Part shown: positions 322 to 40,072 of the stretch, in pieces
How positions within the stretch are numbered: the first letter of the stretch is position 1
Layout of the letters: every line of letters starts with the position of its first letter
Assembly (NCBI GenBank): GCA_001771985.1
Contig: MERG01000418.1
Location: forward strand, 1-52,679
Source of the DNA: Betaproteobacteria bacterium RIFCSPLOWO2_12_FULL_62_13
Lineage (GTDB): Bacteria; Pseudomonadota; Gammaproteobacteria; Burkholderiales; SG8-41
Direction: 5' to 3'
DNA length: 52,679 bases
The notes under the pieces: model-generated
What the model was told of the DNA's origin: nothing
Databases searched by the model: none
What the model saw: the letters and a program-made list of their open reading frames with translations, nothing else
Program-made: the position numbers and the translations under genes

Positions 322-411
322 GTGACGGGTGACGGGTGACGGAAAGAGGTGACGGGTGAAGGGTCACGGGTCACGAGTCACGAGCCACGAGTCACGAGTC
401 ACGAGCCACGC
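322..411. repeat. Tandem heptad array forming an imperfect hairpin (GTGACGG units switching to GTCACGA/GCCACGA units)
   Basis: 13 consecutive 7-nt units, with one 6-nt unit at 343-348. The left half (322-362) and right half (363-411) are complementary in 5 of 7 positions per unit. The array ends 11 nt before ATG 422. Confidence 0.8.
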
Positions 412-421
412 TTTTCCCGCG

Positions 422-1615
422 ATGGAATACTTCTTCGCTACGTGCCCGCGGGGGCTGGAGCGCGTGCTCGCCGACGAGCTTGCCGCGCTCTCCGCACGCG
501 AGGTCAAGCCGGTTGATGGCGGCGTCGCATTCGCGGGCGAGCTCCCGCTGTGCTATGCCGTCAATCTCGAGAGCCGCGTCGCGAGCCGCGTGCTGTGGCG
601 GGTTGGAGAGGCCGGCTATCGCGACGAGCACGACGTATACGAAGCGGCGCGGGCGCTTCCCTGGCCACGCTGGTTCGACGTGCACTGTTCGATTCGCGTC
701 AACGTCACCGCCATCAGGTCGCCCCTCAAGAGCCTCGACTTTGCGACCCTCAGAATCAAGGATGCGGTTTGCGACGTTTTCCGCGCCGCGCGAAACAGGC
801 GGCCCGGCGTGGACACCGCCAGTCCCGACATCCGCATCCACGCCTTCCTGACCCGCGACGCGGCGACGTTTTACCTCGACACTTCAGGCGAAGCGCTGTT
901 CAAGCGCGGATGGCGCATCGCCCGGGGCGATGCGCCATTACGAGAGAATCTCGCAGCAGGGATATTAAAACTCACGGGATGGTCTGCGCCCACCCCGCTC
1001 TACGACCCCATGTGCGGCAGCGGCGCGTTCCTGGTGGAAGCGGCGATGATGGCGCTTGACATCGCGCCGGGCTTGAACCGTCGCTTCGGTTTTGAAAAGC
1101 TGGAAAGCTTCGACGCGAGAAAATGGTGTGTGCTTCGCGACCGGGCACTCGAGCGGAGGAAACTGCCTCAGGGGCTGCCAATCTTTGGCAGCGACAAATC
1201 CGGAACGATCGTCGGCGTCGCGCGCAAAAATCTCGAATCGGCCGGAATAGAAAGTGCCGTCCACCTCAAACAAATCGACATACTCGACGCGAGTCCGCCG
1301 TCCGAAGCCGGCATCATGATAATGAATCCACCTTATGGTGAGCGGCTCTCGGACCGGGAGGCGCTCGCCATGATCTATCCCAAGCTCGGCAACACGCTCA
1401 AGAAGCGCTTCGCAGGCTGGACGGCTTACATCCTGTCCGCCGACATGCGGCTGCCCAAGCTCATCGGCCTCGCGGCCTCCAGACGCACACCGCTCTACAA
1501 CGGGGCGCTGGAATGCCGGCTGTTCGAGTACAGGCTGGTGGCGGGCAGCCTGCGGCGCGGCAAGAGCTTCACTGCCAAGGACGCCAAGGGGCCAAGAGAG
1601 CCGAAAGAAATTTGA
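422..1615 (+). CDS. THUMP-domain class I SAM-dependent RNA methyltransferase (RlmL/UPF0020-like)
   Basis: The N-terminus MEYFFATCPRGLE.. is THUMP-like. SAM motif I is DPMCGSGAFLVEA and motif IV is NPPYGERL. I chose ATG 422 because codons 356-421 only translate the heptad array. Confidence 0.85.
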   Translation: MEYFFATCPRGLERVLADELAALSAREVKPVDGGVAFAGELPLCYAVNLESRVASRVLWRVGEAGYRDEHDVYEAARALPWPRWFDVHCSIRVNVTAIRSPLKSLDFATLRIKDAVCDVFRAARNRRPGVDTASPDIRIHAFLTRDAATFYLDTSGEALFKRGWRIARGDAPLRENLAAGILKLTGWSAPTPLYDPMCGSGAFLVEAAMMALDIAPGLNRRFGFEKLESFDARKWCVLRDRALERRKLPQGLPIFGSDKSGTIVGVARKNLESAGIESAVHLKQIDILDASPPSEAGIMIMNPPYGERLSDREALAMIYPKLGNTLKKRFAGWTAYILSADMRLPKLIGLAASRRTPLYNGALECRLFEYRLVAGSLRRGKSFTAKDAKGPREPKEI

Positions 1616-2022
1616 CTGGTCTCATGTCTTTCCGTTGACGAGTCCCATGAGCCCAATGCCTTGAATAACGCGCCGCATTGACGTGTCGATGACAGCCACC
1701 ACCACAACTCGATGGCACGCCACGACGTCGGGTCCCGTGCGGGCACGCCTATCCAGAGTATTAGACACCTGAGCGCCAGGAATGTCTAACCCGGGCCGAT
1801 CCGGGCCCCGCAACGGCTCAATGCTCAGCAATATTCTTCTCCTCGTGTTTTCCCAGCGATTGGGGGCTTGGGATGACCGCTGTCAACCTGAATGCTTGCC
1901 GCTGCGTTTGAGCGTACGCACAGTTCGCAAAGTAACGGCTCGGAAGATATAGCGCTGAGTGCGCGAGCCGCATGCGAATGGCAAACGTAGTTCACGAAAC
2001 CAACATCCCACAGGAGGGGGCC

Positions 2023-2439
2023 ATGGAAAGAGCACAAACATTGAAGATTCTCAACGCGCTTGCACACGGCGTGCACCCGGCGACGGGGGAGCAATTTGCC
2101 TCCGACAGTCCGTACCAGCATCCCGACACGGTGCGCGCACTGTTCGAGGCGATGCGCGCAGTCGAAAGCAACGGTGCGGCGCCTGCGGCACGAGGGCAGC
2201 CGGCAGCATCGCTCCCCGGAAACGCCGGATCGCGCTGGACTTCAGAAGAGGAGGAGCGCCTTGCGGCGGCATTCGACAGCGGACGGACGGTCGATGAACT
2301 CGCGCGCGAGCACAACCGTACCCGCGCCGCGATCGAGGCAAGATTGGTCAGGCTCGGGAAGCTCGATGCCTCAGCGGTGACCACGCCGCTGCGCTATCCG
2401 CCCAAATCGGGCGGGCGTTCCGCACAGAACAACGTGTGA
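2023..2439 (+). CDS. Hypothetical protein with a C-terminal SANT/Myb-like helix-turn-helix segment
   Basis: AGGAGGGGG lies 3 nt upstream of ATG 2023. RWTSEEEERLAAAFDSGRTVDELAREHNRTRAAIEARLVRLGKL resembles a Myb/SANT-type HTH. I recognise no firm family. Confidence 0.5.
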   Translation: MERAQTLKILNALAHGVHPATGEQFASDSPYQHPDTVRALFEAMRAVESNGAAPAARGQPAASLPGNAGSRWTSEEEERLAAAFDSGRTVDELAREHNRTRAAIEARLVRLGKLDASAVTTPLRYPPKSGGRSAQNNV

Positions 2440-2451
2440 CGGCGCGCGGGG

Positions 2452-2628
2452 CGTGACTCGGGAGGTCGTGAGTTCGGGAGATCGGGAGGTCGTGAGTTCG
2501 GGAGATCGGGAGATCGGGAGATCGTGAAATGGAAAGACCGTGAGTTCTGGAGATCGTGAAGAGTTGTATTTCCCTCTCCCGCTCTCACGCCCTCCCGGAA
2601 TTTGACGCTCTCGCGCCCTCACGCTGTG
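2452..2628. repeat. Octad (8-nt) tandem array with a complementary downstream arm
   Basis: About 14 units of CGGGAGGT/CGTGAGTT/CGGGAGAT lie at 2452-2562, including a perfect 24-nt duplication (2459-2482 = 2483-2506). The reverse complement of 2571-2628 reads CGGGAGGG CGTGAGAG CGGGAGAG, matching 6 of 8 positions per unit. It lies between convergent genes. Confidence 0.8.
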
Positions 2629-2644
2629 ATGGGATGTCCCGGCA

Positions 2645-3781
2645 TTAAACGATGTTCAGGTGCTCGATCCCCGTCATCACGTCCTTTTCCTTCGCTTCCT
2701 TGCCGTGCAGCTTGATCATCAGCCGCAGCTCGTTCACCGAGTCGGCGTTCCTGAGCCCATCCTCGTAGCTGATCAGACCCGCTTCGTAGAGCTCGAACAG
2801 ATGCTGGTCGAAAGTCTGCATGCCGAGCTCGCGCGATTTCGCCATGATCGCCTTGATCTCATGCACCTCGCCCTTGAAGATGAGATCCTGGATCAACGGC
2901 GAGTTGAGCATGATTTCCACCGCCGGCACGCGTCCCTTGCCGTCCTTCTTCGGGATCAGCCGCTGGGAAATGATCGCCCGGATGTTGAGCGAGAGATCCA
3001 TCAGGAGCTGGTGCCTGCGCTCTTCGGGGAAGAAGTTGATGATGCGGTCGAGCGCCTGGTTGGAGCTGTTGGCATGCAGCGTCGCCATGCACAGGTGGCC
3101 GGTTTCGGAGAAGGCGATCCCGTAGTCCATCGTGTCCCGGTCGCGGATCTCCCCGATGAGGATCACGTCCGGCGCCTGCCGCAGCGTGTTCTTGAGCGCG
3201 ACATGCCACGAATCGGTGTCGACCCCGACTTCGCGCTGTGTGACGACGCAGTTCTTGTGCTCGTGCACGAATTCGACCGGGTCTTCGATCGTGATGATAT
3301 GGCCGTAGCTGTTTTCATTGCGATAACCGGTCATCGCCGCAAGTGTGGTCGATTTGCCCTGACCCGTGCCGCCGACCATGATGATGAGACCGCGCTTGGT
3401 CATCACGAGGTCTTTCAGTATCGGCGGCAAACCCAGCTCTTCGACACTGGGGATCTTGGCATTGATGGTGCGCAGTACTATACCGATCCGACCCATTTGC
3501 ACAAAGCAGCTCACGCGGAAACGGCCGATGCCCCTCGGGCTGATCGCGAAATTGCACTCTTTGGTCGCCTCGAATTCCGCGACCTGCTTGTCGTTCATGA
3601 TGGAGTGCGAAAGCTCGACGGTATGCTGGGGCGTAAGCGGCTGGGAGGCCACCGGCGTCACCTTGCCGTCGACTTTGATCGCGGGAGGAAAACCGGCGGT
3701 AATAAAGAGGTCGGAGGCCTTCTTGTCCACCATTGCCTGCAGCAGGTCATTTATGAATTTGACTGCCTGATCTCGTTCCAT
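2645..3781 (-). CDS. pilU: Type IV pilus retraction ATPase PilU
   Basis: KASDLFITAGFPPAIKVDGK N-terminus and Walker A GGTGQGKST. It lies directly downstream of pilT on the same strand. Confidence 0.9.
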   Translation of the reverse strand: MERDQAVKFINDLLQAMVDKKASDLFITAGFPPAIKVDGKVTPVASQPLTPQHTVELSHSIMNDKQVAEFEATKECNFAISPRGIGRFRVSCFVQMGRIGIVLRTINAKIPSVEELGLPPILKDLVMTKRGLIIMVGGTGQGKSTTLAAMTGYRNENSYGHIITIEDPVEFVHEHKNCVVTQREVGVDTDSWHVALKNTLRQAPDVILIGEIRDRDTMDYGIAFSETGHLCMATLHANSSNQALDRIINFFPEERRHQLLMDLSLNIRAIISQRLIPKKDGKGRVPAVEIMLNSPLIQDLIFKGEVHEIKAIMAKSRELGMQTFDQHLFELYEAGLISYEDGLRNADSVNELRLMIKLHGKEAKEKDVMTGIEHLNIV

Positions 3782-3850
3782 ATGTCGCTCCTCAGGTGCG
3801 CCGGCCCGTAAAACGGTTGCTGCTGTTCCGCCGGGCGGGCATCTACCCCG

Positions 3851-4983: not shown

Positions 4984-5673
4984 ATGACAACAATTGCCGC
5001 CAACATGCAAGCTGTGCGCGATCGCATCGCATGTGCCGCGCAGGGCGCCGGGCGGCCGCCGTCCTCTATCGCGCTGATTGCAGTGAGTAAAACCTGGCCC
5101 GCGGAGTACATTGCCGCGGCGCACGCGTGCGGCCAGCGCGCGTTCGCCGAGAGTTACGCACAGGAGGCCATGGAGAAGATGAAGCCGCTCGCGCATCTGC
5201 CGCTCGAGTGGCACTTCATCGGGCCGCTCCAGAGCAACAAGACGCGCCCCATCGCCGAGCATTTCCACTGGGTGCACAGCGTGGAGCGCGAGAAGATCGC
5301 GGCACGACTGAACGAGGCGCGCCCCGAACGCCTGCCGCCGCTTAACGTTTGCATCCAGGTCAACGTAAGCGGCGAGGCAAGCAAGAGCGGGGTGGCGCCC
5401 GGTCAGGAGCCTGTCCTCGCGCGCGCCATCGCGGCCCTGCCGCGCCTCAGGCTGCGCGGATTGATGGCGATCCCCGAGCCGACGCGCGACGCGGGGCTTC
5501 AGCGCCGGCGTTTCGCGTTGCTGCGTGAACTCAAGGATGGACTCGTGGCAGCCGGTTTTGCCGTCGACACGCTCTCGATGGGCATGTCGGACGACCTCGA
5601 AGCGGCGATCCTCGAGGGCGCCACCATGGTGCGCGTCGGCACCGCCATCTTCGGCGAACGGATCAAGAGCTAA
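4984..5673 (+). CDS. yggS: YggS-family pyridoxal-phosphate homeostasis protein
   Basis: LIAVSKTWP (PLP lysine) and HFIGPLQSNK motifs. It sits in the conserved position between pilT and proC. Confidence 0.9.
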   Translation: MTTIAANMQAVRDRIACAAQGAGRPPSSIALIAVSKTWPAEYIAAAHACGQRAFAESYAQEAMEKMKPLAHLPLEWHFIGPLQSNKTRPIAEHFHWVHSVEREKIAARLNEARPERLPPLNVCIQVNVSGEASKSGVAPGQEPVLARAIAALPRLRLRGLMAIPEPTRDAGLQRRRFALLRELKDGLVAAGFAVDTLSMGMSDDLEAAILEGATMVRVGTAIFGERIKS

Positions 5674-5872
5674 CCGCAAAGGCGCGAAGGCGCAAAGAAA
5701 GCCTGGACTGTTATGAGACAAGACTATGGTTTATGCTAATGCACTACGGCCGTTTGCTTGTGAAGACTTCGCGGCCATGGTCACAAGCCCCGCCAACGCC
5801 ATCGCCTCCAATGCAATTGCTCATGTCTGTTTTTCTTTGCGTTTCCTTTGCGCCTTCGCGCCTTTGCGGTTA
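5671..5872. repeat. 27-bp perfect inverted repeat of AAGGCGC-type heptads flanking a 148-nt core
   Basis: TAACCGCAAAGGCGCGAAGGCGCAAAG at 5671-5697 equals the reverse complement of 5846-5872. The left arm begins with the yggS stop codon. The right arm ends 20 nt before the proC ATG. The core is visibly less GC-rich. Confidence 0.8.
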
Positions 5873-7583: not shown

Positions 7584-7596
7584 CACCGATCCTGGA

Positions 7597-7685
7597 GTGA
7601 CGGGTGATGAGTGACAAGTGAGCGGTGACGAGTGACGGGTGATGTAGTTACCCATTTCCCATTTCCGATTTCCTATTTACGATTT
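7597..7685. repeat. Two adjacent, different heptad arrays (GTGAYGR x7, then CCNATTT x5)
   Basis: 7597-7645 reads GTGACGG GTGATGA GTGACAA GTGAGCG GTGACGA GTGACGG GTGATGT. 7651-7685 reads CCCATTT CCCATTT CCGATTT CCTATTT ACGATTT. The second array overlaps the last codons and stop codon of the PLD gene. Confidence 0.75.
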
Positions 7686-9184
7686 TCGGGCGCTCCCCCG
7701 TCGGCGGCACCGTCCGTCCTCTGCCGCGCGGCGCGCTTTTCTTCTTCGGCCTCCCGTCTTCCTGCCGCGCGCAGCTCGCGCGATCTTACCAGGAGCGAAA
7801 CCGCAACCCAGGCGGCGAGCAGTGCCAGCGGAACGCCGACGACGAGCGGCCACAGCAAGGCGACGGCGGCGAACGCCAGCAGCGCAACGGCCACGCCGAG
7901 CATCGTACCGGCCTCGGCAGGCCCGAGCACGCGGCGATTGGTGATCGCCGCGCCCACGGTGTTTCCGAAACGCAGCGCCCCGGCCGCGGCGCGCGAGGCG
8001 CTGCCGCCGCGCGCCCGGCCGCGCCGGCGCGGCGCCGCCGGGCGCACGCGGTTACGCGCCGAGAGCACGATTTCGGTGGCGTTCGCGAGATCCTCCTCAT
8101 ACATTTGCTGCATCGCCACGGCGAAACGCTGATCCTCGACCGCGACATCGAGTTCGTAATTGCCGATCCAGCTCGACAAATTGAGATTGGACGAACCCAC
8201 GCGCGCCCAGCGGCCGTCGGCCACCGCGGTCTTCGCGTGCAGCATCGGACCATTCCACTCGAAGACCCGGATGCCGGCCTCGAGCAGCGGACGGTAACCG
8301 GAGCGCGACAGGGCCGAAAGCACCGGCAGATCGCTCGCACCGGGCACGAGCAGCCTCACATCCACGCCGTCCATCGCGGCTGCGCGCAGCGCCTGCACAT
8401 AGGGCGTGGTGCCGACAAAATAGGCGTCGGTGAGCCACAGTATGCGGCGCGCCATCGCCGCAATCAGCTGATCAAGGCGATAGAGCGCGGCGATATTCGG
8501 CGCCGTGGCGAGCACGCGCACCATCACTTCGCCTGCGGCAGCGATGGCGTCGGGATCGGTGAGCTCGTCTTCGGAAATCGGCCCACCAGCCGCCGCCCAA
8601 ACCTCGGCAAAAGCGCGTTCGATATCGGCGACTGCCGGACCGTGCACCTCGACCCCGGTGTCGCGCCACGGTTCAATCCCGCGCGCGGGGTCGCCGACCC
8701 ATCTGCGGCTCACGCACAACCCCGTCACGAAACCCACGCGGCCGTCCACCGCAATCATCTTGCGGTGGTCGCGCATCAGCCACCCGAACGGGCTGTCCAG
8801 CCGCGGCGGGCTGAAGCACCTCACCTCGCCGCCGGCAGCGATGAGCGGTTGCCACAGCCGCCGCGACGCTGCCCCGACGGCCCCCATCCAATCGTAGATC
8901 GCCCTGACACACACACCTTCGCGCGCCTTCGCTGCAAGCGCGGCGACGAATTCGCGCCCTATCCGGTCCTCGGCGATGATGTAGTTTTCGAAGTAGATCT
9001 TATGGGTGGCGGCGGCGATTGCCTCCAGCCAGGCCGGATAGTTTTCCGCGGCGTTTCTCAGTATCCGCACGCTGTTGTCCGGCACCAGGGGCGCGCCGGC
9101 GGCGCGCGAGAACGCCTGTTCGGCAAGCGCGCGAGCAAGCGGCATTGCCGGCGGCTCCAACTGCTTTGACCCGTATGGCTCCAC
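7673..9184 (-). CDS. Phospholipase D / cardiolipin synthase-like protein with C-terminal transmembrane segment
   Basis: Two HKD motifs (HRKMIAVDG and [20 protein letters not shown]). Hydrophobic stretch [31 protein letters not shown] near the C-terminus. Confidence 0.8.
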
Positions 9185-9313: not shown

Positions 9314-10768
9314 TTACATCAATATGATGTCGAACTGTTCCTGGTTGTACACCGTCTCGACCTGGAGCGACACCGGCTTGCCGATGAAGTCGGACAGTAT
9401 CGCCAGGCTCTGCGATTCCTCGTCCAGAAACAGGTCGATCACCTGCTGCGAGGCGAGGATGCGGAACTCGCGCGCGCTGAACTGGCGCGCCTCGCGCAGC
9501 AGTTCGCGCAGAATCTGGTAGCACACCGTCTGCGCGGTCTTCAGCTCCCCGCGGCCCTCGCACACCGGGCACGGCTCGCACAGCACGTGAGCCAGGCTCT
9601 CGCGCGTGCGCTTGCGCGTCATCTCCACCAGTCCGAGCTGGGTGAAGCCGTTCACCGTCATGCGCGTGCGGTCGCGCGCGAGGGCCTTGCGGAATTCATT
9701 GAGCACGGCGTTCTTGTGCTCCTCGGTGTCCATGTCGATGAAGTCGATGATGATGATGCCGCCCAGGTTTCTCAGCCGCAACTGGCGCGCGATCACCTGC
9801 GCCGCCTCGAGATTCGTCTTGAATATGGTGTCGTCGAAGCTGCGGCCGCCGACGAAACCCCCGGTGTTGACATCGATCGTGGTGAGCGCCTCGGTCTGGT
9901 CCACGATCAGGTAGCCGCCGGATTTCAGCTCCACGCGGCGCGCCAGCGCCTTCTCGATCTCGTCCTCGACTCCGTAGAGATCAAGCAACGGGCGCTCGCC
10001 CTGGTAGTGCTCGATCCGTTCGACCATCGTGGGCGTGAACTCCTGGGCGAAGGCTTGCATGCTCTGAAACGTCTCGTGCGAGTCGACCGGGATGCGGATC
10101 GTCTCCTCATGTACGAAATCGCGCAACACCCGCAGGCTGAGATTCAGGTCCTGATAGAGCAGCGTCAACGGAGCGGCCGTTTGCGCCCGCTCCTGGATGC
10201 CGCGCCAGAGCTTCCTCAGGTACTCGACGTCGGAAGCGAGTTCGCGGTCGGAAGCGGTTTCCGCCACGGTGCGGATGATGAAGCCGCCCTTCTCGTCGGG
10301 TGGCAGCACCTGCTGCAGTTTCTCGCGCAAGTGCTGGCGCTCTTCTTCGTCCTCGATGCGCTGCGAGATGCCGATGTGCGACTCCTGCGGCAAAAAGACC
10401 AGGAAGCGGCCGGCGATGCTGATCTGCGTCGAAAGGCGCGCGCCCTTGGTGCCGATCGGGTCCTTGACCACTTGCACCGTCAGGTTCTGGCCTTCGGCGA
10501 GGAGCTTTTCGATCGGCGTGCCGTGATCGCCGTTGTCCCGGCTGCTCCAGATGTCGGCCACGTGCAGGAATGCCGCGCGTTCACCCCCGATATCGACGAA
10601 GGCCGACTGCATCCCCGGCAGCACGCGGATCACCCGTCCCGTGTAGATGTTGCCGACGAGCCCGCGGGCCGAAGCGCGCTCGATATGCAGCTCCTGAGTG
10701 ACACCGTGTTCGATCACGGCGACGCGCGTCTCCTGCGGCGTGACGTTGATGAGGATTTCTTCAGTCAT
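9314..10768 (-). CDS. rng: Ribonuclease G
   Basis: S1 domain GNIYTGRVIRVLPGMQSAFVDIG followed by an RNase E/G catalytic core. 484 aa. It sits in the conserved rng-maf neighbourhood. Confidence 0.9.
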   Translation of the reverse strand: MTEEILINVTPQETRVAVIEHGVTQELHIERASARGLVGNIYTGRVIRVLPGMQSAFVDIGGERAAFLHVADIWSSRDNGDHGTPIEKLLAEGQNLTVQVVKDPIGTKGARLSTQISIAGRFLVFLPQESHIGISQRIEDEEERQHLREKLQQVLPPDEKGGFIIRTVAETASDRELASDVEYLRKLWRGIQERAQTAAPLTLLYQDLNLSLRVLRDFVHEETIRIPVDSHETFQSMQAFAQEFTPTMVERIEHYQGERPLLDLYGVEDEIEKALARRVELKSGGYLIVDQTEALTTIDVNTGGFVGGRSFDDTIFKTNLEAAQVIARQLRLRNLGGIIIIDFIDMDTEEHKNAVLNEFRKALARDRTRMTVNGFTQLGLVEMTRKRTRESLAHVLCEPCPVCEGRGELKTAQTVCYQILRELLREARQFSAREFRILASQQVIDLFLDEESQSLAILSDFIGKPVSLQVETVYNQEQFDIILM

Positions 10769-10793
10769 CGGGCCCGACGCGGGCTAGGAGTTT

Positions 10794-11026
10794 GCCGGAC
10801 CCCGGATCAGAGTCCGGGGCAAGCTTAACCCCGACAAACGCCTCAGGCAAAACCGCCTGCTGGAAAACAGCGAAAAAGGGACTTGAAAACACAAACTCGA
10901 CCCCGCTTTCATCGCCACTCGCAGGCCAACAGGGCGTGTTCTGTCAGATCTCATGCTTCAGGCGGTTTTGCTTTAACAGCCTGTCGGGCCTGCTAAGCTT
11001 GCCCCGGACTTGATCCGGGGTCCGAC
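10794..11026. mobile_element. MITE-like 233-nt element with about 35-bp terminal inverted repeats
   Basis: The left end is GCCGGACCCCGGATCAGAGTCCGGGGCAAGCTTAAC. The reverse complement of the right end is GTCGGACCCCGGATCAAGTCCGGGGCAAGCTTAGC. Inner segments are also complementary (GCAAAACCGCCTG at 10848-10860 against 10960-10972). It has no coding capacity. Confidence 0.55.
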
Positions 11027-11032
11027 GGGCTG

Positions 11033-11657: not shown

Positions 11658-11740
11658 TTGAGGGATTAGGGATCAGGGGCTAGGGACTAGTGCGAAACTC
11701 CGTAAGTGTGTTCTAGCCCCTAGCCTCTAGCCCCTATGGT
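11658..11740. repeat. Heptad hairpin (NNNAGGG x5, 20-nt loop, CTAGCCC x4)
   Basis: The left arm is TTGAGGG ATTAGGG ATCAGGG GCTAGGG ACTAGTG. The right arm is CTAGCCC CTAGCCT CTAGCCC CTATGGT. GGGGCTAG segments are complementary. The right arm overlaps the rlmH stop codon and its last 4 codons. Confidence 0.75.
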
Positions 11741-13371: not shown

Positions 13372-13455
13372 GGAGAGGAGAAAAGAGAAAGGAGAAAGGA
13401 GTAGAGCGCCCCGCGCACGGTTTACACCCCTCTCTTCTCTTTCCTCTCCCCTCTC
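13372..13455. repeat. Polypurine arm / polypyrimidine arm hairpin (GGAGAAA-type heptads)
   Basis: 13372-13406 is GGAGAGGAGAAAAGAGAAAGGAGAAAGGAGTAGAG. 13427-13455 is CCCCTCTCTTCTCTTTCCTCTCCCCTCTC. The arms are complementary apart from A/G transitions. Confidence 0.75.
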
Positions 13456-14835: not shown

Positions 14836-15105
14836 AGGATTGAGGTACTAGGATTGAGGATTGAGTTATTGATTCTTGCATAATGGGTTGACAAATAAGT
14901 GTCGTCCCCGCGAAGGCGGGGACCCATACTGAGCTGCCACGGAGACTGATGCGCCCTATGGATTCCCGTTTCCACGGGAATGACAACATGTCACTATTTC
15001 TGTCAACCACATATGCAAGGGTCAATAGTTCACATGCGCGCTTGACGCTTTTCCCTCAATCCTCGCTTCTCGATCCTCAATCCTCAATCCTAATACCTCA
15101 ATCCT
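14836..15105. repeat. 270-nt nested palindrome between aceE and aceF
   Basis: The outer AGGATTG heptad arms 14836-14865 and 15076-15105 are complementary at 29 of 30 positions. The middle arms 14875-14901 and 14992-15019 match at roughly 22 of 28. The inner unit is the two-hairpin element at 14901-14985. Confidence 0.85.
14901..14985. repeat. Two-hairpin REP-like element (copy 1)
   Basis: GTCCCCGC-GAAG-GCGGGGAC and ATTCCCG-TTTCCA-CGGGAAT hairpins are separated by a spacer. It has the same architecture as the reverse complement of 28541-28611. Confidence 0.7.
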
Positions 15106-17791: not shown

Positions 17792-17850
17792 CTTTGCGGG
17801 GCTACTGTGTTAGGTGATGTGGCACGTCGGTGCCCCGGGCCGGGGGACCG

Positions 17851-17859
17851 ATTATATCA
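17851..17859 (-). promoter_or_regulatory. Candidate extended -10 promoter element for aceE
   Basis: The reverse complement reads TGATATAAT (TGnTATAAT) about 60 nt upstream of the aceE ATG. I found no convincing -35. Confidence 0.35.
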
Positions 17860-17908
17860 CCGCGGTGCGGCGTTTCGCCGCATGCTGCGGCGCAGAAAAA
17901 CAGGAGAA

Positions 17909-18063
17909 GCTTTGCCGCAAAGGACGCTAAGAACGCCAAGGAAAAGCAATAATGCACCCTGTCAACAGATATTTCCCCAGTTCGCCCGAGTCGTCTGATG
18001 ACAAGTTGTCTTCAGATTTTTCTCTACATGCCGTTCCTTTCTTCGCGTCCTTGGCGGCAATGC
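17909..18063. repeat. Inverted AAGGACG-type heptad arms flanking an ~85-nt lower-GC core
   Basis: The left arm contains TTGCCGCAAAGGACGCTAAGAA (17912-17933). The reverse complement of the right arm contains TTGCCGCCAAGGACGCGAAGAA, with 2 mismatches. The right arm abuts the stop codon of the crotonase remnant. Confidence 0.7.
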
Positions 18064-18064
18064 T

Positions 18065-18457
18065 TTAATGGCCTGTAAATTTCGCGGGGCGTTTTTCGAG
18101 AAAGGCGCGCATGCCTTCCTTCTGGTCAGCGGTAGCAAAGGCGAGCGCAAAAAGACTGCTTTCCAATACGCAGGCATTGCCAAGATCGAGGTCGTGGCCG
18201 CGCTGCGCAGCCTGCTTCGCAAGCCGCACCGCCACGGGGCCTTTGGCGGCGATCGCTCGCGCCATCTCCAGGCCCTTTTCCTTGAGTTCGGCGGCGGCAT
18301 AGACGTGATTGGCGAGGCCGATACGAACCGCTTCGTCGGCTTTAACGTGGCGGGCGGTCGTCAGTAATTCGAGAGCCATGGGCGCGCTCGGGCGGTTGAC
18401 CGTGAGAAGATAAATCTCCGTCTCGGGCTGCTCGAGCAGAATGTTTTGGAATGCCAT
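18065..18457 (-). pseudogene. Enoyl-CoA hydratase/isomerase (crotonase) with a large internal in-frame deletion
   Basis: The N-terminus MAFQNILLEQPETEIYLLTVNRP joins directly to the C-terminal third ..LELLTTARHVKADEAVRIGLANHV...QKEGMRAFLEKRPAKFTGH. That leaves 130 aa against the roughly 260 aa typical of crotonases. The oxyanion-hole region is absent. Confidence 0.6.
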
Positions 18458-18675
18458 CGTCAATACCCTTTGTGGAAAATCAAACTTTTCCTGCATTGGA
18501 ACCTGGAATGGATCTTGATAATATTGTCGTCGAACTCAAGCAGCAGGTGAGCCAGCGTACGCCGCCGTGCAGTCCACCGCGAAGGCATGTTGCAGCTTAT
18601 CCTGTGTGAAGTGCCGTTGCAGACTTTGCGCGTCGTGAACAACATGCCAGGATTTTCGGTTGACCCGGACCGAGC

Positions 18676-21024: not shown

Positions 21025-21041
21025 AGCGAAAGGAAAAACTG

Positions 21042-21941: not shown

Positions 21942-21989
21942 AATCCGGGGAACGTGATCCCGGAATTCGCTGCGCTTCTTCCGGGCTAC
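21919..21989. repeat. REP-like element, GTAGCCCGGAT...ATCCGGGG...CCGGGCTAC type (full copy)
   Basis: GTAGCCCGGA (21919-21928) pairs with TCCGGGCTAC (21980-21989). There is an inner hairpin CCCGGAT..ATCCGGG. The first 33 nt recur at 41854-41886 with 2 mismatches. Confidence 0.65.
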
Positions 21990-33975: not shown

Positions 33976-33981
33976 ATTTTT

Positions 33982-33999
33982 CTTGACGTTTACGTAAAT
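33982..33999. promoter_or_regulatory. Candidate LiuR operator, box 1 (CTTGACGTTTACGTAAAT)
   Basis: Imperfect palindrome TTGACGT-TT-ACGTAAA, 6 nt from the MBL start codon. It shares 14 contiguous nt with box 2. Confidence 0.55.
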
Positions 34000-34053
34000 G
34001 AAAGTATAAGCTCGCTAAGAATCGGATATTACACGCTTATATTGCGGAGCACA

Positions 34054-34455: not shown

Positions 34456-34594
34456 TGAATTAAAGTAAGCGCACACTTATGGGTTGCCTTCACGTTGAGG
34501 TCATTTCTTGAACCCTCTGATTTGGGTGGCGTAGGTTACGACAAACTGTCAGAACCGGTCTTTTCAACATGTTACTGAAATCCGCTATTGGCAA

Positions 34595-34612
34595 GTTAAC
34601 GTAAACGTCAAG
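34595..34612. promoter_or_regulatory. Candidate LiuR operator, box 2 (reverse complement CTTGACGTTTACGTTAAC)
   Basis: Read on the + strand it is GTTAACGTAAACGTCAAG, 5 nt upstream of the ivd ATG. It has the same orientation and spacing relative to its gene as box 1 has to the MBL gene. Confidence 0.55.
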
Positions 34613-34617
34613 ACGAG

Positions 34618-35905: not shown

Positions 35906-37093
35906 ATGACCAATGACCCGGTAGTCATCGTCAGTGCCGCACGCACGCCAATCGGCGGATTCATGGGGAATCTCAAGGCGCTCGCCGCACCCGAGCTCGG
36001 CGCGGTCGCGATCCGTGCCGCAGTCGATCGCGCGGGCGTTAGACCCGACGAAGTACAGGAAGTAATCATGGGCAACGTATTGCCCGCAGGCCAGGGCCAG
36101 GCGCCGGCGCGGCAGGCGGCGCTCGGCGCGGGGCTTCCGCCGGCGGTCGGCTGCATGACCATCAACAAGGTGTGCGGTTCCGGCATGAAGGCAGCGATGC
36201 TCGCGTACGATCTTATTACGCTCGGCACCAACGACATCATGACAGCGGGCGGCATGGAAAGCATGTCGAACGCGCCCTACCTTCTACCCAAGGCACGCGG
36301 CGGCTTGCGCCTCGGCCATGGCGAAGTCAAGGACCACATGTTCCTCGACGGACTGGAGGATGCCTACGACCGTGGCCGCCTCATGGGCATCTTCGCTGAA
36401 GATTGCGCCGCAAGATACCAGTTCTCGCGCGAAGCGCAGGACCGCTGTGCGATCACTTCCCTGACCCGCGCGCAGGCCGCAACCAGAAATGGCAGCTTTA
36501 CGGCGGAAATTGTTCCAGTGAAAATTACCGGGAGCAAGACCGAAACCACGGTGACGATCGACGAGCAACCGCTCAAGGCGAACCTCGACAAGATCCCGCG
36601 GCTCAAGCCTGTTTTCAGGAAAGACGGCACCGTGACGCCCGCCAACTCGAGTTCGATTTCCGACGGTGCAGCCGCCATGGTGCTGATGAAGCTGTCAGAG
36701 GCTGAGAAACGCGGCATCCGGCCGCTCGCGAAAGTCGTCGCCTGCGCCGCACATTCGCAGGAACCGCAGTGGTTCACGACCGCACCGGTCGGCGCAATCC
36801 GAAAACTCTTTGAAAAAACCGGCTGGGACGCGAAAACGACCGATCTCTTCGAGATCAACGAAGCATTCGCGGTGGTGGCGATGGCAGCGATGCAGGACCT
36901 CGAACTGCCGCAAGACAAGGTCAACGTCCACGGCGGTGCGTGCGCGCTGGGGCACCCGTTAGGCGCATCGGGGGCGCGCATCATGGTGACACTGCTTGCC
37001 GCCCTCGAAAAATACGGACTGAAGCGCGGCATCGCAAGCCTGTGCATCGGGGGCGGTGAAGCGACCGCGATCGCGCTCGAGCGGATGAGCTAG
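35906..37093 (+). CDS. Acetyl-CoA C-acetyltransferase (thiolase II)
   Basis: Active-site NKVCGSGMKA, then NVHGGACALGHPLGASG and CIGGGEATA. 395 aa. Confidence 0.92.
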   Translation: MTNDPVVIVSAARTPIGGFMGNLKALAAPELGAVAIRAAVDRAGVRPDEVQEVIMGNVLPAGQGQAPARQAALGAGLPPAVGCMTINKVCGSGMKAAMLAYDLITLGTNDIMTAGGMESMSNAPYLLPKARGGLRLGHGEVKDHMFLDGLEDAYDRGRLMGIFAEDCAARYQFSREAQDRCAITSLTRAQAATRNGSFTAEIVPVKITGSKTETTVTIDEQPLKANLDKIPRLKPVFRKDGTVTPANSSSISDGAAAMVLMKLSEAEKRGIRPLAKVVACAAHSQEPQWFTTAPVGAIRKLFEKTGWDAKTTDLFEINEAFAVVAMAAMQDLELPQDKVNVHGGACALGHPLGASGARIMVTLLAALEKYGLKRGIASLCIGGGEATAIALERMS

Positions 37094-37173
37094 TGATGGG
37101 TGATGGGTGATGGGTCATGAGTGATCAATGTTCTTACGCATTCCCCATTACTCATTGCCCATTACTCATTACC
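37093..37173. repeat. Heptad hairpin (GTGATGG x5, 15-nt loop, CCCATTA-type x4)
   Basis: The left arm is GTGATGG GTGATGG GTGATGG GTCATGA GTGATCA. The right arm is CCCCATT ACTCATT GCCCATT ACTCATT ACC. The array starts on the G of the thiolase TAG stop codon. Confidence 0.8.
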
Positions 37174-37213
37174 ACGCAATGATAAGCAGGAAACTGGTGC
37201 ACTGAGAGGCGGC

Positions 37214-37816
37214 ATGCCGAATCCAATCGACTTCTACTTCGATTTCTCTTCGCCCTACGGCTACTTCGCAAGCACCCGGATTGACGCCATCGCGGCAAAC
37301 CACGGGCGCGAGGTAGTCTGGCGCCCGATCCTGCTCGGTGCGATATTCAAGATCACCGGCCAGCAGCCGTTGCCGACAATTCCGCTGAAGGGCAGCTACG
37401 CGAAGCACGACCTCGCTCGCTCGGCGCGGATTTTCGGCGTGCCGTTCAAGATACCGTCAAAATTTCCGGTCGCGGGGCAGGCGCCGAGCCGCGCCTTCTA
37501 CTGGGTCGGCGACCGCGATCCGGCGCTCGCCAGGAAGCTCGCGCAGGCGCTTTATCGCGCCTATTTCGCGGAAGACCGCGATATTTCCAGCGCGGAGGTC
37601 ACCGCCAACGTCGCAGCCAAACTCGGGCTCAACCGCGACGAAGTAGTGCAGGCGTTGAACGAGCCTGCGGTCAAAGAACGCCTCAAGACCGAAGTCGACG
37701 CCGCGATCGAGCGCGGCGTTTTCGGCTCCCCATACATCATCATCGACGGCGAGCCGTTCTGGGGCTCCGATCGGCTCGACCAGGTGGAGAAGTGGCTTGC
37801 GACGGGGGGTTGGTGA
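37214..37816 (+). CDS. DsbA-like 2-hydroxychromene-2-carboxylate isomerase family protein
   Basis: [17 protein letters not shown]-terminal motif and C-terminal [27 protein letters not shown] ribosome-binding site before ATG 37214. Confidence 0.85.
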
Positions 37817-37830
37817 GAGGAGGAATCGTC

Positions 37831-38346
37831 ATGCGCGACAGACTCGAAGCCATTCAAGCGAACATCGTGACGCTGAAGATCGACGCCATCGTCAATGCCG
37901 CGAATACGACGCTGCTGGGCGGCGGTGGCGTCGACGGCGCCATTCACCGCGCCGCCGGGCCGGAGCTCCTCGCCGAGTGCCGCGCGCTCGGCGGCTGCCC
38001 GACCGGTGAAGCCCGAATCACCAAAGGTTACAAACTGCCCGCGAAATACGTGATCCACACCGTAGGCCCGGTGTGGCGCGGCGGCCATCACCGCGAACCG
38101 GAACTGCTTGCCTCGTGCTACCGGACGAGCCTCACGCTCGCCGCGGGGCACGGCGTGAAGACCATCGCATTCCCGGCAATCAGCTGTGGTGCATACGGCT
38201 ATCCGCTTGAAGCTGCGGTGCAGGTCGCGGTGCGCGAGTGTGCAGGCTTTGCGGCTGCCAATCCCGTACCGGAGAAAATCACCTTTGCCTGCTTCGACCG
38301 CGCCATGTTCGATCTGTATCGCGCCGAGCTCGATCGGCTGTCATGA
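37831..38346 (+). CDS. Macro-domain protein (O-acetyl-ADP-ribose deacetylase, YmdB-like)
   Basis: [24 protein letters not shown] and [13 protein letters not shown] motifs. GAGAGGAGG ribosome-binding site. The stop codon overlaps the liuB ATG (ATGA). Confidence 0.88.
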
Positions 38347-39950
38347 CCGTCATCAAATCGAAGCTCAAGCCGCAGTCTGAGGAATTCAAAGTTGCGGCCC
38401 GCGCCATGCAGGCGCTGGTGGACGACCTCGACGCCAGGCTCGCCGCGGTGCGACAGGGTGGCGCAGCGCCAGCGCGCGCCAGACACCAGGCGCGCGGCAA
38501 GCTGCTTGCACGCGAGCGCATCGGCGCGCTGCTCGACCCAGGCGCGCCATTCCTGGAACTGTCCCCCCTTGCAGCCTGGGAAGTCTACGATGAAGTGGTG
38601 CCCGCAGCGGGCATCATCACCGGCGTGGGCCGGGTGAATGGCCGTGACTGCGTCGTGATAGCCAATGACGCGACGGTGAAAGGCGGCACGTACTATCCGC
38701 TCACGGTGAAGAAGCACCTGCGCGCGCAGCAAATCGCGCTCGAGAACCGGCTGCCCTGCATCTATCTTGTCGATTCCGGCGGCGCGCACCTGCCAAGCCA
38801 GGACGAGGTGTTTCCCGACCGCGATCACTTCGGGCGCATCTTCTACAATCAGGCCAACATGTCGGCGGCGGGCGTCGCACAAATCGCCGTGGTGATGGGT
38901 TCATGCACCGCGGGCGGAGCGTACGTGCCGGCGATGTCGGATGAGACCATCATCGTCAGGAACCAGGGCACGATCTTCCTCGCCGGTCCGCCGCTCGTGA
39001 AGGCCGCCACCGGAGAATCAGTGACGGCGGAAGAACTGGGGGGCGCCGACGTGCACACCCGCATATCGGGCGTCGCCGATCATCTCGCCGAGGATGACCG
39101 TCATGCGCTGGAACTGGCACGGCGGGCAGCCGGGAACCTCAACCGCGCAGATCGAGCCGGGCTTGATCTGCGCGAGCCGCGCGAACCGCTCTACGATCCC
39201 GCCGAGCTCTACGGCGCGATTCCGCAAAGCACGCGCACGCCTTTCGACGTGCGCGAGGTCATCGCTCGCATCGTCGATGCGAGCGAGTTTGACGAATTCA
39301 AGAGCCGCTACGGCGCGACCCTGGTGTGCGGCTTTGCCCGCATCGGGGGTTTTCCCGTCGGGATCATCGCCAACAACGGCATCCTGTTCTCGGAATCCGC
39401 ACTCAAGGGCACGCACTTCATCCAACTGTGCTGCCAGCGCGGCATCCCGCTCGCGTTCCTGCAGAACATCAGCGGGTTCATGGTCGGAAAGAAATATGAG
39501 GCCGCAGGCATCGCCAAGGACGGCGCCAAGATGGTGACCGCGGTCGCCTGCGCGAAAGTGCCCAAGTTCACCGTCATCATCGGCGGCAGCTTCGGCGCCG
39601 GCAACTACGGCATGTGCGGCCGCGCCTTTGGTCCGCGCTTTCTCTGGAGCTGGCCCAATGCGAGGATTTCGGTGATGGGCGGCGAACAGGCCGCCAACGT
39701 GCTGGCGCAGGTCAGGCGCGAGGCGCTCGAGAGCCAAGGAAAAAAATGGAGCGCCGAGCAGGAGGAAAAATTCAAGGCGCCGATCCTCGAGCAATATGCA
39801 CGGCAGTCCAGCGCCTGGTATGCCAGCGCGCGGCTGTGGGACGACGGTGTAATCGATCCCGGGGATACGCGCAAGGTGCTGGCGCTCGGCATTGCCGCAA
39901 GTCTCAACGCCCCGGTCGAAAAGACGAATTTCGGGGTGTTCAGAATGTAG
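38343..39950 (+). CDS. liuB: Methylcrotonoyl-CoA carboxylase, carboxyltransferase (beta) subunit
   Basis: 535 aa. [29 protein letters not shown] and [14 protein letters not shown] are typical of MccB/LiuB. Confidence 0.92.
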
Positions 39951-39952
39951 CA

Positions 39953-40072
39953 GTGAGGACCGGGGAGTGAGGACTCAGGACTGAGGACTGAGGATCCAGA
40001 ACATTGCTGGCATTCGGAGTAGCAACATCAGGTTGAGTATGTTTTCCTTGGCGTCTTTGGCGTCTTGGCGGT
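39953..40072. repeat. Two heptad arrays (NNNAGGA x6 at 39953-39994; CTTGGCG-type at 40046-40072)
   Basis: The first array reads GTGAGGA CCGGGGA GTGAGGA CTCAGGA CTGAGGA CTGAGGA. The second reads CCTTGGCGTCTTTGGCGTCTTGGCGG. They lie between liuB and liuE. Confidence 0.7.

Follow-up and report, generated by a model that had tools for sequence, protein, structure and literature searches.

Tandem heptad arrays, mostly arranged as complementary pairs, occupy intergenic gaps in an uncultured betaproteobacterial lineage

The window, i.e. the whole stretch of 52,679 nucleotides analyzed here (contig MERG01000418.1), carries short tandem arrays in 10 of its approximately 21 co-directional or convergent gaps of at least 60 nt. 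The ten loci are given below, z being the folding score obtained with RNAfold against dinucleotide shuffles.

g1, 322..411, + strand: GTGACGG array (322-362) followed by a GTCACGA array (363-411), between a HIRAN gene (stop 233-235) and rlmL (ATG 422); TRF period 7, 7.9 and 6.9 copies; z -2.2/-3.6; partner specificity marginal.
g2, 2458..2628, convergent gap from hyp138 to pilT: 12 octads TCGGGAGA/TCGTGAGT (2458-2556), then C-rich CTCTCCCG/CTCTCACG (2568-2628); TRF period 8, 12.4 copies; z -3.8.
g3, 5671..5872, + strand, yggS-proC gap: 30-nt arms (5671-5700 and 5843-5872), 97% complementary, of AAGGCGC/CGCAAAGG units around a 142-nt unique core; the arm begins with the 3 nt of the yggS stop TAA; z -6.8.
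g4, 7595..7685, convergent gap from yggU to PLD: 7 GTGAYGR units (7595-7642), then 4-5 CCNATTT units (7651-7685) overlapping the PLD stop (7673-7675); called by TRF; z 0.1/-0.2.
g5, 11661..11736, - strand, rlmH-maf gap: NNNAGGG array (11661-11690) against CTAGCCC (11713-11736), with 24-nt arms 79% complementary; on the sense strand, the first unit contains the rlmH stop; called by TRF; z -2.6/-3.8; partner-specific.
g6, 13373..13455, - strand, aceF-nadD gap: GGAGAAA-type array against a CT-rich array; called by TRF; z -3.5/-3.8; partner-specific.
g7, 14836..15105, - strand, aceE-aceF gap: AGGATTG arm (14836-14865) and CCTCAAT arm (15054-15105), with a 189-nt structured core and 30-nt arms 97% complementary; z -10 to -12.
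g8, 17907..18065, - strand, following the ech stop and preceding a conserved aceE TATAAT box: inverted CCAAGGACGC-type arms (17907-17933 and 18039-18065) around a 105-nt core; z about -5.
g9, 37093..37173, + strand, gap from a thiolase gene to a DsbA-like gene: 4.7 copies of GTGATGG (37093-37125) against 5.7 of CCCATTA/CTCATTR (37134-37173); called by TRF; stop TAG overlapping the first unit and ATG at 37178; z -6.1 on + and -1.9 on -.
g10, 39954..40072, + strand: 5.9 copies of CTGAGGA (39954-39994) and 2.9 of CTTGGCGT (40047-40072), two non-complementary arrays from different unit families; called by TRF; z 0.1/1.6.

The period of these arrays is highly specific. Indeed, the window contains 16 period-7 arrays of at least 3 copies while 0.37 is expected from 30 block-wise dinucleotide shuffles, and 2 period-8 arrays against 0.17 expected; all other periods stand at chance level in the same comparison. 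A sequence-only reading had listed arrays at the ten loci, and TRF recovers period-7 or period-8 arrays at nine of them at the positions given there. The exception is g8 (17909-18063), where TRF calls no tandem repeat and which is a 27-nt inverted repeat, 89% complementary, with a loose periodicity of approximately 9 nt only. Five independent assemblies are 99.4-100% identical and three of them carry the arrays across the loci that they cover (in L084, g7 falls on an N-run, and the short L085 reaches none of the arrays). Furthermore, four related genomes hold arrays in the same gaps. The heptad arrays are therefore not an assembly artefact; they are real and lineage-wide, in line with the earlier proposal of a process filling the spacers of this lineage with periodic, mostly self-complementary arrays. 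The low-complexity ORFs found at these places are by-products of reading through the arrays, as had been surmised.

The arms were also said to be complementary throughout, and this stands at eight of the ten loci. Folding exceeds dinucleotide shuffles with z of -5 or lower at g3, g7, g8, and g9 and between -2 and -4 at g1, g2, g5, and g6; at g4 (7593-7690) and g10 (39950-40075) z is near 0, with no hairpin beyond shuffles. When partners are swapped between loci, pairing proves strong and partner-specific at six loci: own-arm pairing is 2-3 times that of swapped arms at g3, g5, g6, g7, and g9, and is strong at g8, which also cross-pairs with g3 and g10. Only a marginal preference appears at g1 and g2, and the swap reveals no own-partner preference at g10 or at g4, where the own partner is the worst among all combinations. 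The g10 5' arm finds its best partner in the g7 3' arm, and the g8 5' arm in the g10 3' arm. The g4 arrays have the appearance of a g9-type pair that has decayed. GTGAYGR units are shared by g1, g4, and g9, TGAGGAY units by g7 and the first array of g10, and AAGGCGC/CCAAGGACGC units by g3, g8, and the second array of g10. Since three families recur in the window, the units are not strictly locus-specific as first thought; the arrays nevertheless do not reduce to one consensus.

The recurrence of a few unit families in the window, in relatives and on unrelated metagenome contigs, at unrelated gaps, could be taken as the trace of dispersed mobile elements (REP/REPIN mobilized by a RAYT transposase, or MITEs) whose ends are repetitive by chance. 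The 27-30-nt inverted arms enclosing 105-210-nt cores at g3, g7, and g8 would fit such elements, and a REP-like GTAG...CTAC palindrome lies elsewhere in the window (21919-21989). However, the cores are unique among all sequences compared, no shared consensus extends beyond the short units, and the arrays have neither GTAG heads nor target-site duplications. They are inherited vertically at orthologous sites with turnover of units, changing by unit-length steps, and some units were apparently seeded by the local stop-codon context (in L001, GAG TAA TGG giving GTAATGG), so that a mobile origin appears extremely improbable. REPs, which RAYT mobilizes, are built on a genome-wide consensus of approximately 20-40 nt that carries a GTAG head, and REP/BIME/REPIN sequences of Enterobacteria and Pseudomonas stabilize upstream mRNA segments. 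The window arrays resemble them in being intergenic, placed after stop codons, hairpin-forming, and presumably transcribed within operons, and differ from them by the lack of a consensus, the absence of a tandem-unit-free palindrome, and change by unit slippage; REP/BIME/REPIN are their nearest functional analogue.

The arrays adjoin stop and start codons, an observation that the measurements bear out. At nine of ten loci, the first arm starts between the inside of the stop codon and 18 nt after it; at g1, it starts 86 nt past the HIRAN stop and 5 nt past that of a possible 11-codon mini-ORF. In seven of eight co-directional gaps, 4-21 nt separate the end of the second arm from the following start codon. 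The approximately six divergent gaps contain no period-7 or period-8 array. The polarity is almost invariable, with 26 G-first arms and 1 C-first arm among the window and AceF loci and 9 against 0 on GTGAYGG-array contigs from an unrelated metagenome sample (Wilcoxon p 0.003-0.009). Shine-Dalgarno strength downstream of the hairpins does not differ significantly from that of other genes.

This placement is relevant to the role of terminator or insulator that had been suggested. In such a role, possibly bidirectional, long stems would replace the hairpin-plus-U-tract type in a GC-rich genome, and a weak RNA:DNA hybrid would form over the pyrimidine-rich 3' arm. All loci lie downstream of stop codons, two between convergent genes; g8 has the ech stop on one side and the aceE TATAAT box on the other, and a T5 run follows 11 nt past its stem. 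T4-T5 runs occur 0-11 nt past the stems at g1, g3, g4, g8, and g10, and the window shows no excess of canonical terminators (16 and 13 versus 16.0 and 16.8 expected). On the other hand, with the next start only 4-21 nt past the stem at seven of eight co-directional loci, there is no room for a promoter: the downstream genes must therefore be transcribed through the stem, which is unlikely to be an efficient terminator. Several stems lie inside conserved operon junctions such as aceE-aceF and rlmH-maf, which measure 2-17 nt in relatives, and the terminator scan of the window calls none of the array loci. A stem-loop directly past the stop with some T runs nearby is shared with intrinsic terminators and with RNase III or exonuclease-barrier stem-loops, but the window stems are much longer, periodic, and regularly mismatched, with no adjacent U-tract found by the scan and the next start immediately beyond. 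Altogether, we consider termination unlikely.

A DNA-level element, i.e. protein-binding iterons, cruciforms, or G-quadruplex/i-motif repeats acting on replication, supercoiling, or nucleoid structure, would account for the regular unit spacing. The GGG-N4 units at g5, g2, and the GTGAYGG arrays could form G4, and the Xanthomonas and Nostoc repeats fold as G4 in vitro (PMC4692102). The mismatches give no clear preference for RNA: on the sense strand, G.T outnumber A.C mismatches by 29 to 17 (5 to 0 at g9), while no more than 10 of 20 gaps have the lower MFE on the sense strand (mean -4.8 kcal/mol), so that sense-strand wobble is a weak indication of an RNA-level fold. Yet four G3 tracts occur at only approximately 2 of 10 loci, units 7 bp apart do not keep to the phase of the DNA helix, and placement follows stop and start codons. 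Moreover, units differ by locus and turn over at orthologous sites with pairing kept, which argues against one sequence-specific binding protein. Such an element is in our view very unlikely.

The comparison of strains and relatives sheds light on how the arrays change. Strains sharing 99.6% identity show indels of a single 8-nt unit confined to one arm: L082 carries an additional octad and exchanged unit variants in the 5' arm of g2 only, and L081 an additional octad in the 5' arm of g3 only, while the g8 gap is hypervariable. These one-arm indels in near-identical strains indicate active slippage at the arrays. In the closest relatives (L001, L033, L016, and L007), the same gaps hold arrays with different copy numbers and often different units, and arms expand independently and are often unequal (11 units versus 4, and 9 perfect units versus 4, in L033). 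Three operon junctions were compared with those of more distant relatives, which mostly show 2-17 nt where the window lineage holds hairpins of 73-290 nt. These short junctions include aceE-aceF (16-17 nt in L002, L003, and L004), rlmH-maf (overlapping codons in relatives), and maf-rng; as several lack a hairpin in relatives, no ancestral function was required there.

Hairpin gain in such short junctions, unit-length polymorphism, unequal arms, and the missing complementarity at g4 and g10 are all expected if the arrays are a functionless by-product of the mutational regime of the lineage, in which high heptad slippage and template switching across quasi-palindromes inflate spacers and selection removes just the harmful ones. 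The widespread heptanucleotide SSR excess attributed to polymerase slippage points the same way (Mrazek 2007, as cited in PMC4692102 and PMC4679880). This neutral explanation nonetheless leaves unaccounted for the near-absolute G-first polarity, which a strand-symmetric mutational process does not predict, and the partner-specific complementarity and covariation that persist at aceF-nadD over distances of approximately 70-80% amino acid identity. There, the orthologous g6 stem in 8 genomes comprises 26 pairs, 12 of them with changes on both sides, and 87% of cells are paired versus 77% when shuffled (0 of 500 shuffles reach 87%) and 38-63% when the partner is slid. A hairpin at the aceE-aceF junction, furthermore, is found in betaproteobacteria of other orders: that of Ca. 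Dactylopiibacterium (L057) is periodic, that of Uliginosibacterium (L064) is not. A purely neutral origin thus seems somewhat unlikely.

Among known systems, the closest case is that of the Xanthomonas GGGAATC inverted heptamers. These and the Nostoc GGGGA(C/T)T repeats form tandem SSRs of 2-26 units (Rehm et al. 2015, PMC4692102), approximately 90% intergenic, nearest the 5' neighboring ORF, and rare between divergent genes; they are transcribed, with no function identified, and 70-75 cases per genome have a plus-strand array followed by a convergent minus-strand array (PMC4692102). We read these plus-then-minus pairs as the same G-first arrangement of G-rich intergenic heptads. The window differs by having at least six unit types, mostly not G4-capable, instead of one dominant unit per genome, by pairs spanning the whole stop-to-start spacer, by 8-nt units and large unique cores, and by its host, an uncultured betaproteobacterium of a different phylum-level lineage. 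Intergenic period-7 arrays are likewise shared with cyanobacterial STRR heptamers and with the long SSRs over-represented in prokaryotes, where period 7 is favored, Burkholderia (Betaproteobacteria) is among the richest genomes, and polymerase slippage is proposed (Mrazek et al. 2007, as cited in PMC4692102 and PMC4679880); as cited there, these surveys describe arrays without two-array complementary pairing, polarity, or stem conservation. Finally, the TAACTGA direct repeats of marine Beggiatoaceae are abundant intergenic heptamer arrays abutting coding regions, with one unit in forward orientation upstream of start codons and a single inverted case reported (PMC4679880); unlike the window arrays, they are not hairpin pairs.

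The explanation that we tentatively prefer is that of paired heptad microsatellites that fold on themselves and would be transcribed as stem-loops between cistrons or at 3' ends, with a function that we infer. Short heptad and occasionally octad units would multiply and contract by replication slippage, giving a G/purine-rich array just past the stop codon and then a nearly complementary C/pyrimidine-rich array that ends shortly ahead of the following start codon or the stop of a convergent gene; the whole untranslated spacer could therefore fold into one long imperfect stem-loop. The fold would matter in the transcript, where it may compact the expanded spacer and hold the stop and the next start close. 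With the G-arm first, the C-rich arm would never be naked RNA long enough for Rho loading, and stems of 25-45 bp would be expected to act as barriers to 3' exonucleases or as substrates of RNase III, these Rho, RNase III, and coupling rationales being general knowledge. Complementarity of the arms would then be kept by selection for folding, possibly aided by quasi-palindrome template switching.

The class has been described before: over-represented intergenic heptanucleotide SSRs and the Xanthomonas GGGAATC arrays, which occur as convergent inverted pairs, were already published (PMC4692102). What is new here is the occurrence of one-arm unit indels in strains, of short junctions in relatives, and of compensatory changes at aceF-nadD, together with the G-first polarity, the absence from divergent gaps, and the start codons just past the stem.

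Housekeeping genes make up the window, a chromosomal segment of 63% GC. Those named by Pfam and by the gene calls of identical contigs include rlmL, pilT/pilU-like, yggS-proC-yggT-yggU, a PLD-family protein, rng, maf, rlmH, rsfS, nadD, aceF and aceE, as well as phaC and a cluster for leucine and fatty-acid catabolism. Across its whole length, no match to Rfam 15 at the gathering score and no tRNA was found. Some of its coding regions are possibly disrupted: an enoyl-CoA hydratase ORF (18065-18496) matches no more than the C-terminal 40% of its Pfam model, an SNF2-like helicase (18676-21941) is apparently spread over four ORFs (no-hit 377 aa, DUF3670, Helicase_C and SWIM), and an HMG-CoA lyase lies in two overlapping frames (40094-40753 and 40255-41196). 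In addition, a 15-mer, ACGTAAACGTCAAGA, occurs in two copies (about 33976-34000 and 34593-34617), each immediately upstream of the start codon of one gene of a divergent pair, a metallo-beta-lactamase-fold gene (start 33975, minus strand) and an acyl-CoA dehydrogenase gene (start 34618). The 15-mer is probably a regulator site common to the catabolic cluster. The loci considered here consist of a 5' arm, a core or loop and a 3' arm.

The ten loci of the window
322-411: g1, co-directional gap
2458-2628: g2, convergent gap
5671-5872: g3, co-directional gap
7595-7685: g4, convergent gap
11661-11736: g5, rlmH-maf
13373-13455: g6, aceF-nadD
14836-15105: g7, aceE-aceF
17907-18065: g8, ech-aceE
37093-37173: g9, co-directional gap
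39954-40072: g10, co-directional gap

The sequence-only reading had described each of these gaps as filled by tandem heptads or octads. TRF calls period-7/8 arrays at nine of the ten, in the places claimed; the exception is g8, which is an inverted repeat only, with a loose 9-nt period. The arrays also exceed shuffled controls, with 16 period-7 arrays of at least three copies in the window where block-wise dinucleotide shuffles give 0.37, and two period-8 arrays against 0.17, the remaining periods being at chance. Complementarity of the arms, the second element of the claim, stands out from dinucleotide-shuffled folds at eight loci (hairpin z <= -5 at g3, g7, g8 and g9, and -2 to -4 at g1, g2, g5 and g6) but gives no signal at g4 and g10. 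When each 5' arm was paired with each 3' arm in a partner-swap matrix, the own partner was 2-3 times better than swapped ones at g3, g5, g6, g7 and g9 and marginally better at g1 and g2; at g4 the own pairing was the worst of all combinations, the 3' arms of g3 and g10 equalled its own as partners of the g8 5' arm, and the best partner of the g10 5' arm was the 3' arm of g7. A unit unique to each locus had also been proposed. The ten loci indeed have no common consensus, but three unit families recur and cross-pair, and cross-pairing between loci is confined to them; GTGAYGR is common to g1, g4 and g9.

An assembly artefact is refuted by five independent metagenome assemblies, all 99.4-100% identical to the window and encoding the same Maf protein, and by four related MAGs. 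In three of these near-identical strains (L081, L082 and L083), arrays are present at all the loci that the assemblies cover; a fourth, L084, has a 100-N run (2950-3049) exactly over the aceE-aceF array, and the fifth, L085, is a 918-nt contig that covers maf and part of the maf-rng gap only. Elsewhere in the window, the convergent gap directly after a DUF2889 gene holds an ordinary non-periodic hairpin (41767-41818; 22-nt arms, 95% complementary, 8-nt loop), and thus not every post-stop stem of this genome is heptad-built.

The two arms follow a fixed order, a point absent from the sequence-only reading. At all eight complementary loci of the window the G/purine-rich array lies 5' of the C/pyrimidine-rich one, and because this reads the same on both strands, arm order is independent of gene direction. 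Taking all period-7/8 arrays of the window and of 80 AceF loci, 26 arms are G-first and one is C-first, a count that includes orthologous, non-independent loci and corresponds to about 13 hairpins against one. The same orientation appears in metagenomes, where a scan for (GTGAYGG)3 matched more than 120 contigs of 34-73% GC: among the 66 arrays with usable flanks, a strong Watson-Crick partner lies downstream in nine and upstream in none, and duplex energies are better for downstream than for upstream flanks (p 0.003-0.009). Three of these contigs (L096, L117 and L140) resemble g9, with a stop codon, (GTGATGG)n, a short loop and then CCCATTA/CTCATTA units, and paired heptad arrays therefore occur beyond this lineage.

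The claim that the arrays abut codons was borne out. The first arm begins between the stop codon itself and 18 nt past it at nine of the ten loci; at g1 it begins 86 nt past the stop of the HIRAN gene. This HIRAN-domain gene (2-235, Pfam E 5e-16) is cut by the window start, and between it and g1 lies an 11-codon mini-ORF (GTG at 281 to TGA at 314-316), preceded by a strong AAGGAGG (264-270) and ending 5 nt before the array; it may encode a leader peptide or have arisen by chance. Of the eight co-directional gaps, seven leave 4-21 nt between the second arm and the start codon that follows; the exception is g8, whose second arm ends 124 nt upstream of aceE, before a TATAAT box that all relatives keep. 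At g2 and g4, the convergent gaps, the second arm extends to the stop of the opposing gene. Period-7/8 arrays are found in none of about six divergent gaps, and the co-directional or convergent gaps of at least 60 nt, about 21 in all, hold 10 of them, an avoidance of divergent gaps that is suggestive only (Fisher p about 0.06).

Stems directly behind stop codons might be leaky or bidirectional terminators, and a terminator role had been among the functions first offered. The space from stem to start is too short for a promoter, so the downstream genes must be transcribed through the stems, which argues against efficient termination. Furthermore, a scan for terminators (GC-rich stem, 3-8 nt loop, U-tract) called none of the ten loci, its sites in the window being at chance level, and we regard even the leaky or bidirectional version as distinctly unlikely.

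An AceF query of the genome collection gave no species-level match; the closest sequences (75-82% identity) belong to uncultured Betaproteobacteria MAGs from groundwater and sediment, L001 (JACQOK01), L033 (MERI01), L016 (MEQT01) and L007 (JANNHN01), followed by the more distant Burkholderiales MAGs L002-L004, L009, L011 and L070. All of them keep the order ech-aceE-aceF-nadD-(rsfS)-rlmH-maf-rng-PLD-(yggT-proC-yggS)-pilT, so that orthologous gaps can be compared one by one. As the sequence-only reading had proposed to check, the four nearest relatives have arrays in these gaps, of varying length and sequence. Period-7/8 arrays reach 0.24-1.3 per kb in this array-rich clade and at most 0.1 in most other AceF loci, with 0.18 in Ca. 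Dactylopiibacterium (L057) and 0.16 in L004. At three junctions the hairpins of this lineage measure 73-290 nt; since the same junctions are tight in distant relatives, the structures were gained inside operon junctions. Among relatives, the architecture of a gap is kept while its unit changes, as listed below.

Junction lengths in distant relatives and array units by gap
aceE-aceF: 16-17 nt in distant relatives; unit AGGATTG in the window and L001, GTGAAGGA in L033
rlmH-maf: 5-16 nt in distant relatives, overlapping ATGA in L007; unit GGGCTAG in the window, GTAATGG in L001, AGGATTG in L016 and L033
maf-rng: 2-20 nt in distant relatives
aceF-nadD: unit GAGAGGN in the window and L033, GTGATGA/GTGCAGA in L001, L016, L007, L002, L011 and L070

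The aceF-nadD stem, the one locus to which a formal covariation test was applied, is found in 8 of 11 genomes. Its RNAalifold consensus is a 26-pair stem in which 12 pairs are kept with changes on both sides; 87% of cells are paired, where column shuffles give 77% with none of 500 reaching the observed value, and pairing drops to 38-63% once partners are slid by 1-3 columns. By this test, pairing at the locus is kept through compensatory changes, as in a conserved RNA stem-loop. Further afield, periodic G-first hairpins occur occasionally: Ca. Dactylopiibacterium carries AGGGGGA/TTCGCCC units at aceE-aceF and CCCACTC elsewhere (930-958; 9919-9988), and L004 carries GTAAGCG-type units at yggS-proC (10118-10143). 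In Uliginosibacterium (L064), the hairpin at the aceE-aceF junction is non-periodic. G-first periodic hairpins are thus graded over Betaproteobacteria and not the property of one clade.

Differences between near-identical strains reveal how the arrays change. Three of the ten loci (g2, g3 and g8) vary: the 5' arm of g3 has one more AAGGCGCA octad in L081, and that of g2 one more octad in L082 with TCGGGAGA and TCGTGAGT variants swapped, the 3' arm being the same in both cases. At g8, the ech-aceE gap (17812-18131) differs from L082, L083 and L084, strains otherwise 99.6% identical, by about 25 substitutions or indels over its 320 nt, where the remaining sequence differs by roughly 0.3%; at least two of the arm changes yield G.U, not A.C, on the sense strand, and the hypervariability could stem from a recombination tract or from a mutation rate that is raised at this place. 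In relatives, too, one arm has clearly grown without the other, as in L033, where nine perfect AATCCTG units face four AGGATYN units and eleven GAGAGGC units face about four CCTCTCT-type units. The arrays are active microsatellites, each arm slipping independently. At g5, the last bases of rlmH lie within the array, and a 1-nt deletion at 11730 (within 11720-11730) in L081 moves the stop and alters the RlmH C-terminus (161 aa vs 159 aa called); the protein ends in YHRG* in the window and in YHRE* in relatives, a difference in the last residue.

These loci are therefore paired heptad microsatellites that grow by slippage, are inherited vertically and turn over in unit and copy number, and their arms keep partner-specific complementarity and a fixed order within transcribed post-stop spacers. 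Complementarity may be kept by selection or, alternatively, by quasi-palindrome template switching, a process known in E. coli; because the arms change independently, one at a time, such copying, if it takes place, is not required. A purely neutral mutational by-product would account for growth by slippage; set beside the strict polarity and the covariation, we consider it unlikely.

Two gaps contain structures of another kind. The maf-rng gap (10769-11032) holds a 264-nt non-periodic nested inverted repeat (MFE -149 kcal/mol, z -9.6) with arms of 64 and 66 nt, which align over 67 columns with 8 mismatches; since this junction measures 2-63 nt in all relatives, the repeat resembles an insertion of a structured or MITE-like element. 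In g7, the 189-nt core (14866-15054) carries inverted ends of 32 nt (14862-14893 and 15001-15032, with 78% complementarity) and a pair of tight GC hairpins, one of which, CCCCGC-CTTC-GCGGGG, has TTATTTGTCAAC after it on the sense strand. The core is single-copy in the sequences compared and identical in three strains, and may be either a terminator-promoter module or an element that inserted into the loop. A search of the window and the fetched loci found no second copy of this core, of those of g3 and g8 or of the maf-rng insert, and within these sequences the multi-copy cores expected of a MITE are therefore absent; no target-site duplication was evident.

Among known systems, REP, BIME and REPIN elements are genome-wide imperfect palindromes of about 20-40 nt with a GTAG head, and the arrays have neither feature, in agreement with the earlier view that they are not dispersals of one REP/MITE consensus. 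Outside the ten loci, the window does contain a sole REP-like GTAG...CTAC palindrome (21919-21989), which begins GTAGCCCGGATG, ends CCGGGCTAC and has a 9-nt loop between 31-nt arms of 74% complementarity. Its gap is convergent, flanked by the SWIM-domain ORF and a gene for a Uma2-family endonuclease. No RAYT (IS200/IS605-like) transposase was found among the ORFs scanned in these 52.7 kb of the genome. The defining features of canonical terminators and of Rfam families are likewise lacking, and a literature search by unit sequence matched unrelated plant primers only.

The closest likeness is with heptanucleotide SSRs. According to Mrazek (2007), as summarised in PMC4692102 and PMC4679880, in many prokaryotes no class of long SSR is more over-represented than the heptanucleotides; Burkholderia, Xanthomonas and cyanobacteria rank among the richest carriers, and polymerase slippage was proposed for the excess. 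Each Xanthomonas genome has about 185 GGGAATC arrays, some 90% of them intergenic, at a mean of 28 nt from the 5' neighbouring ORF and rare in divergent gaps; 70-75 convergent plus/minus pairs are potential stem-loops, the same genes flank arrays of variable length and sequence in two species, and the arrays are transcribed but no function was found (Rehm et al., PMC4692102). The window loci match this type in tandem heptads, post-stop intergenic site, convergent order and variation in relatives, and depart from it in a single defining feature, the GGGNATC/GGGGAYT unit with at least four G3 tracts. Such tracts occur only at g5 (GGGATTA/GGGATCA...) and g2, and the AGGATTG, AAGGCGC, GGAGAAA and CTGAGGA units are not G4 motifs. 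The loci are hence a variation on known, unexplained heptameric SSR pairs, with several unit families, in an uncultured betaproteobacterial lineage and spanning stop to start; what they add is polarity, covariation and recent gain in operon junctions.

From these features we infer, tentatively and with opinion close to evenly divided, that the transcript is the relevant molecule and that its fold makes a long untranslated spacer tolerable or useful. A C-rich stretch of 100-300 nt that is left untranslated within an operon would offer Rho a place to load. If the G-arm leads, the C-arm would be captured on emerging, and the reverse order would leave it exposed. Periodic arms could zip in any register, stems of 25-45 bp would be expected to act as 3' exonuclease barriers or RNase III substrates, and a stem from stop to start would hold both codons adjacent. 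A bolder reading joins zipper, Rho hiding, bridging and tuning, and takes fixed-polarity self-complementary heptad pairs for a widespread, unrecognised class of evolvable intercistronic RNA elements. Here, a register-tolerant periodic zipper would fold co-transcriptionally and hide its rut-like C-rich arm from Rho, stop-start bridging would let junctions grow from a few to hundreds of nucleotides without polarity or lost translational coupling, and slippage would tune stem length, and with it relative cistron expression, over short evolutionary time-scales. This joint reading is a long shot.

Other comparisons discriminate little. Sense-strand mismatches (G.T 29 vs A.C 17) are weak evidence for RNA over DNA, and the sense MFE is below the antisense in 10 of 20 gaps (mean -4.8 kcal/mol), with a large effect at aceF-nadD, g9 and g10. 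The corresponding metagenome count of 32 to 5 was set aside as confounded: only perfect G-arms had been searched for, and a ratio of roughly 5 to 2 already follows from the composition of the C-arms. Shine-Dalgarno strength 3' of the hairpins is not significantly lower, and its trend was dropped as evidence for coupling. A three-frame stop-codon trap, suggested by TGA/TAG in many G-arm units, which a period of 7 would bring into every frame, was rejected since stop triplets are a by-product of composition (19 of 38 units vs 18.0 expected from letter-shuffled units). CsrA-type GGA decoys and G4 were discarded as a general explanation, most units having no such motifs.

In practical terms, the arrays break short-read assemblies, as in the N-gap of L084, and affect annotation through spurious low-complexity ORFs and misplaced start codons. 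The lineage also offers an unusually clean system, with many loci beside housekeeping genes, several unit families, orthologous gaps of graded divergence and strain polymorphism. Its regularities, namely strict G-first polarity, stop-to-start stems, covariation and gain in tight operon junctions, can tell a purely mutational origin from a role at the RNA level, be it in Rho shielding, in translational coupling or in the processing or stability of mRNA.
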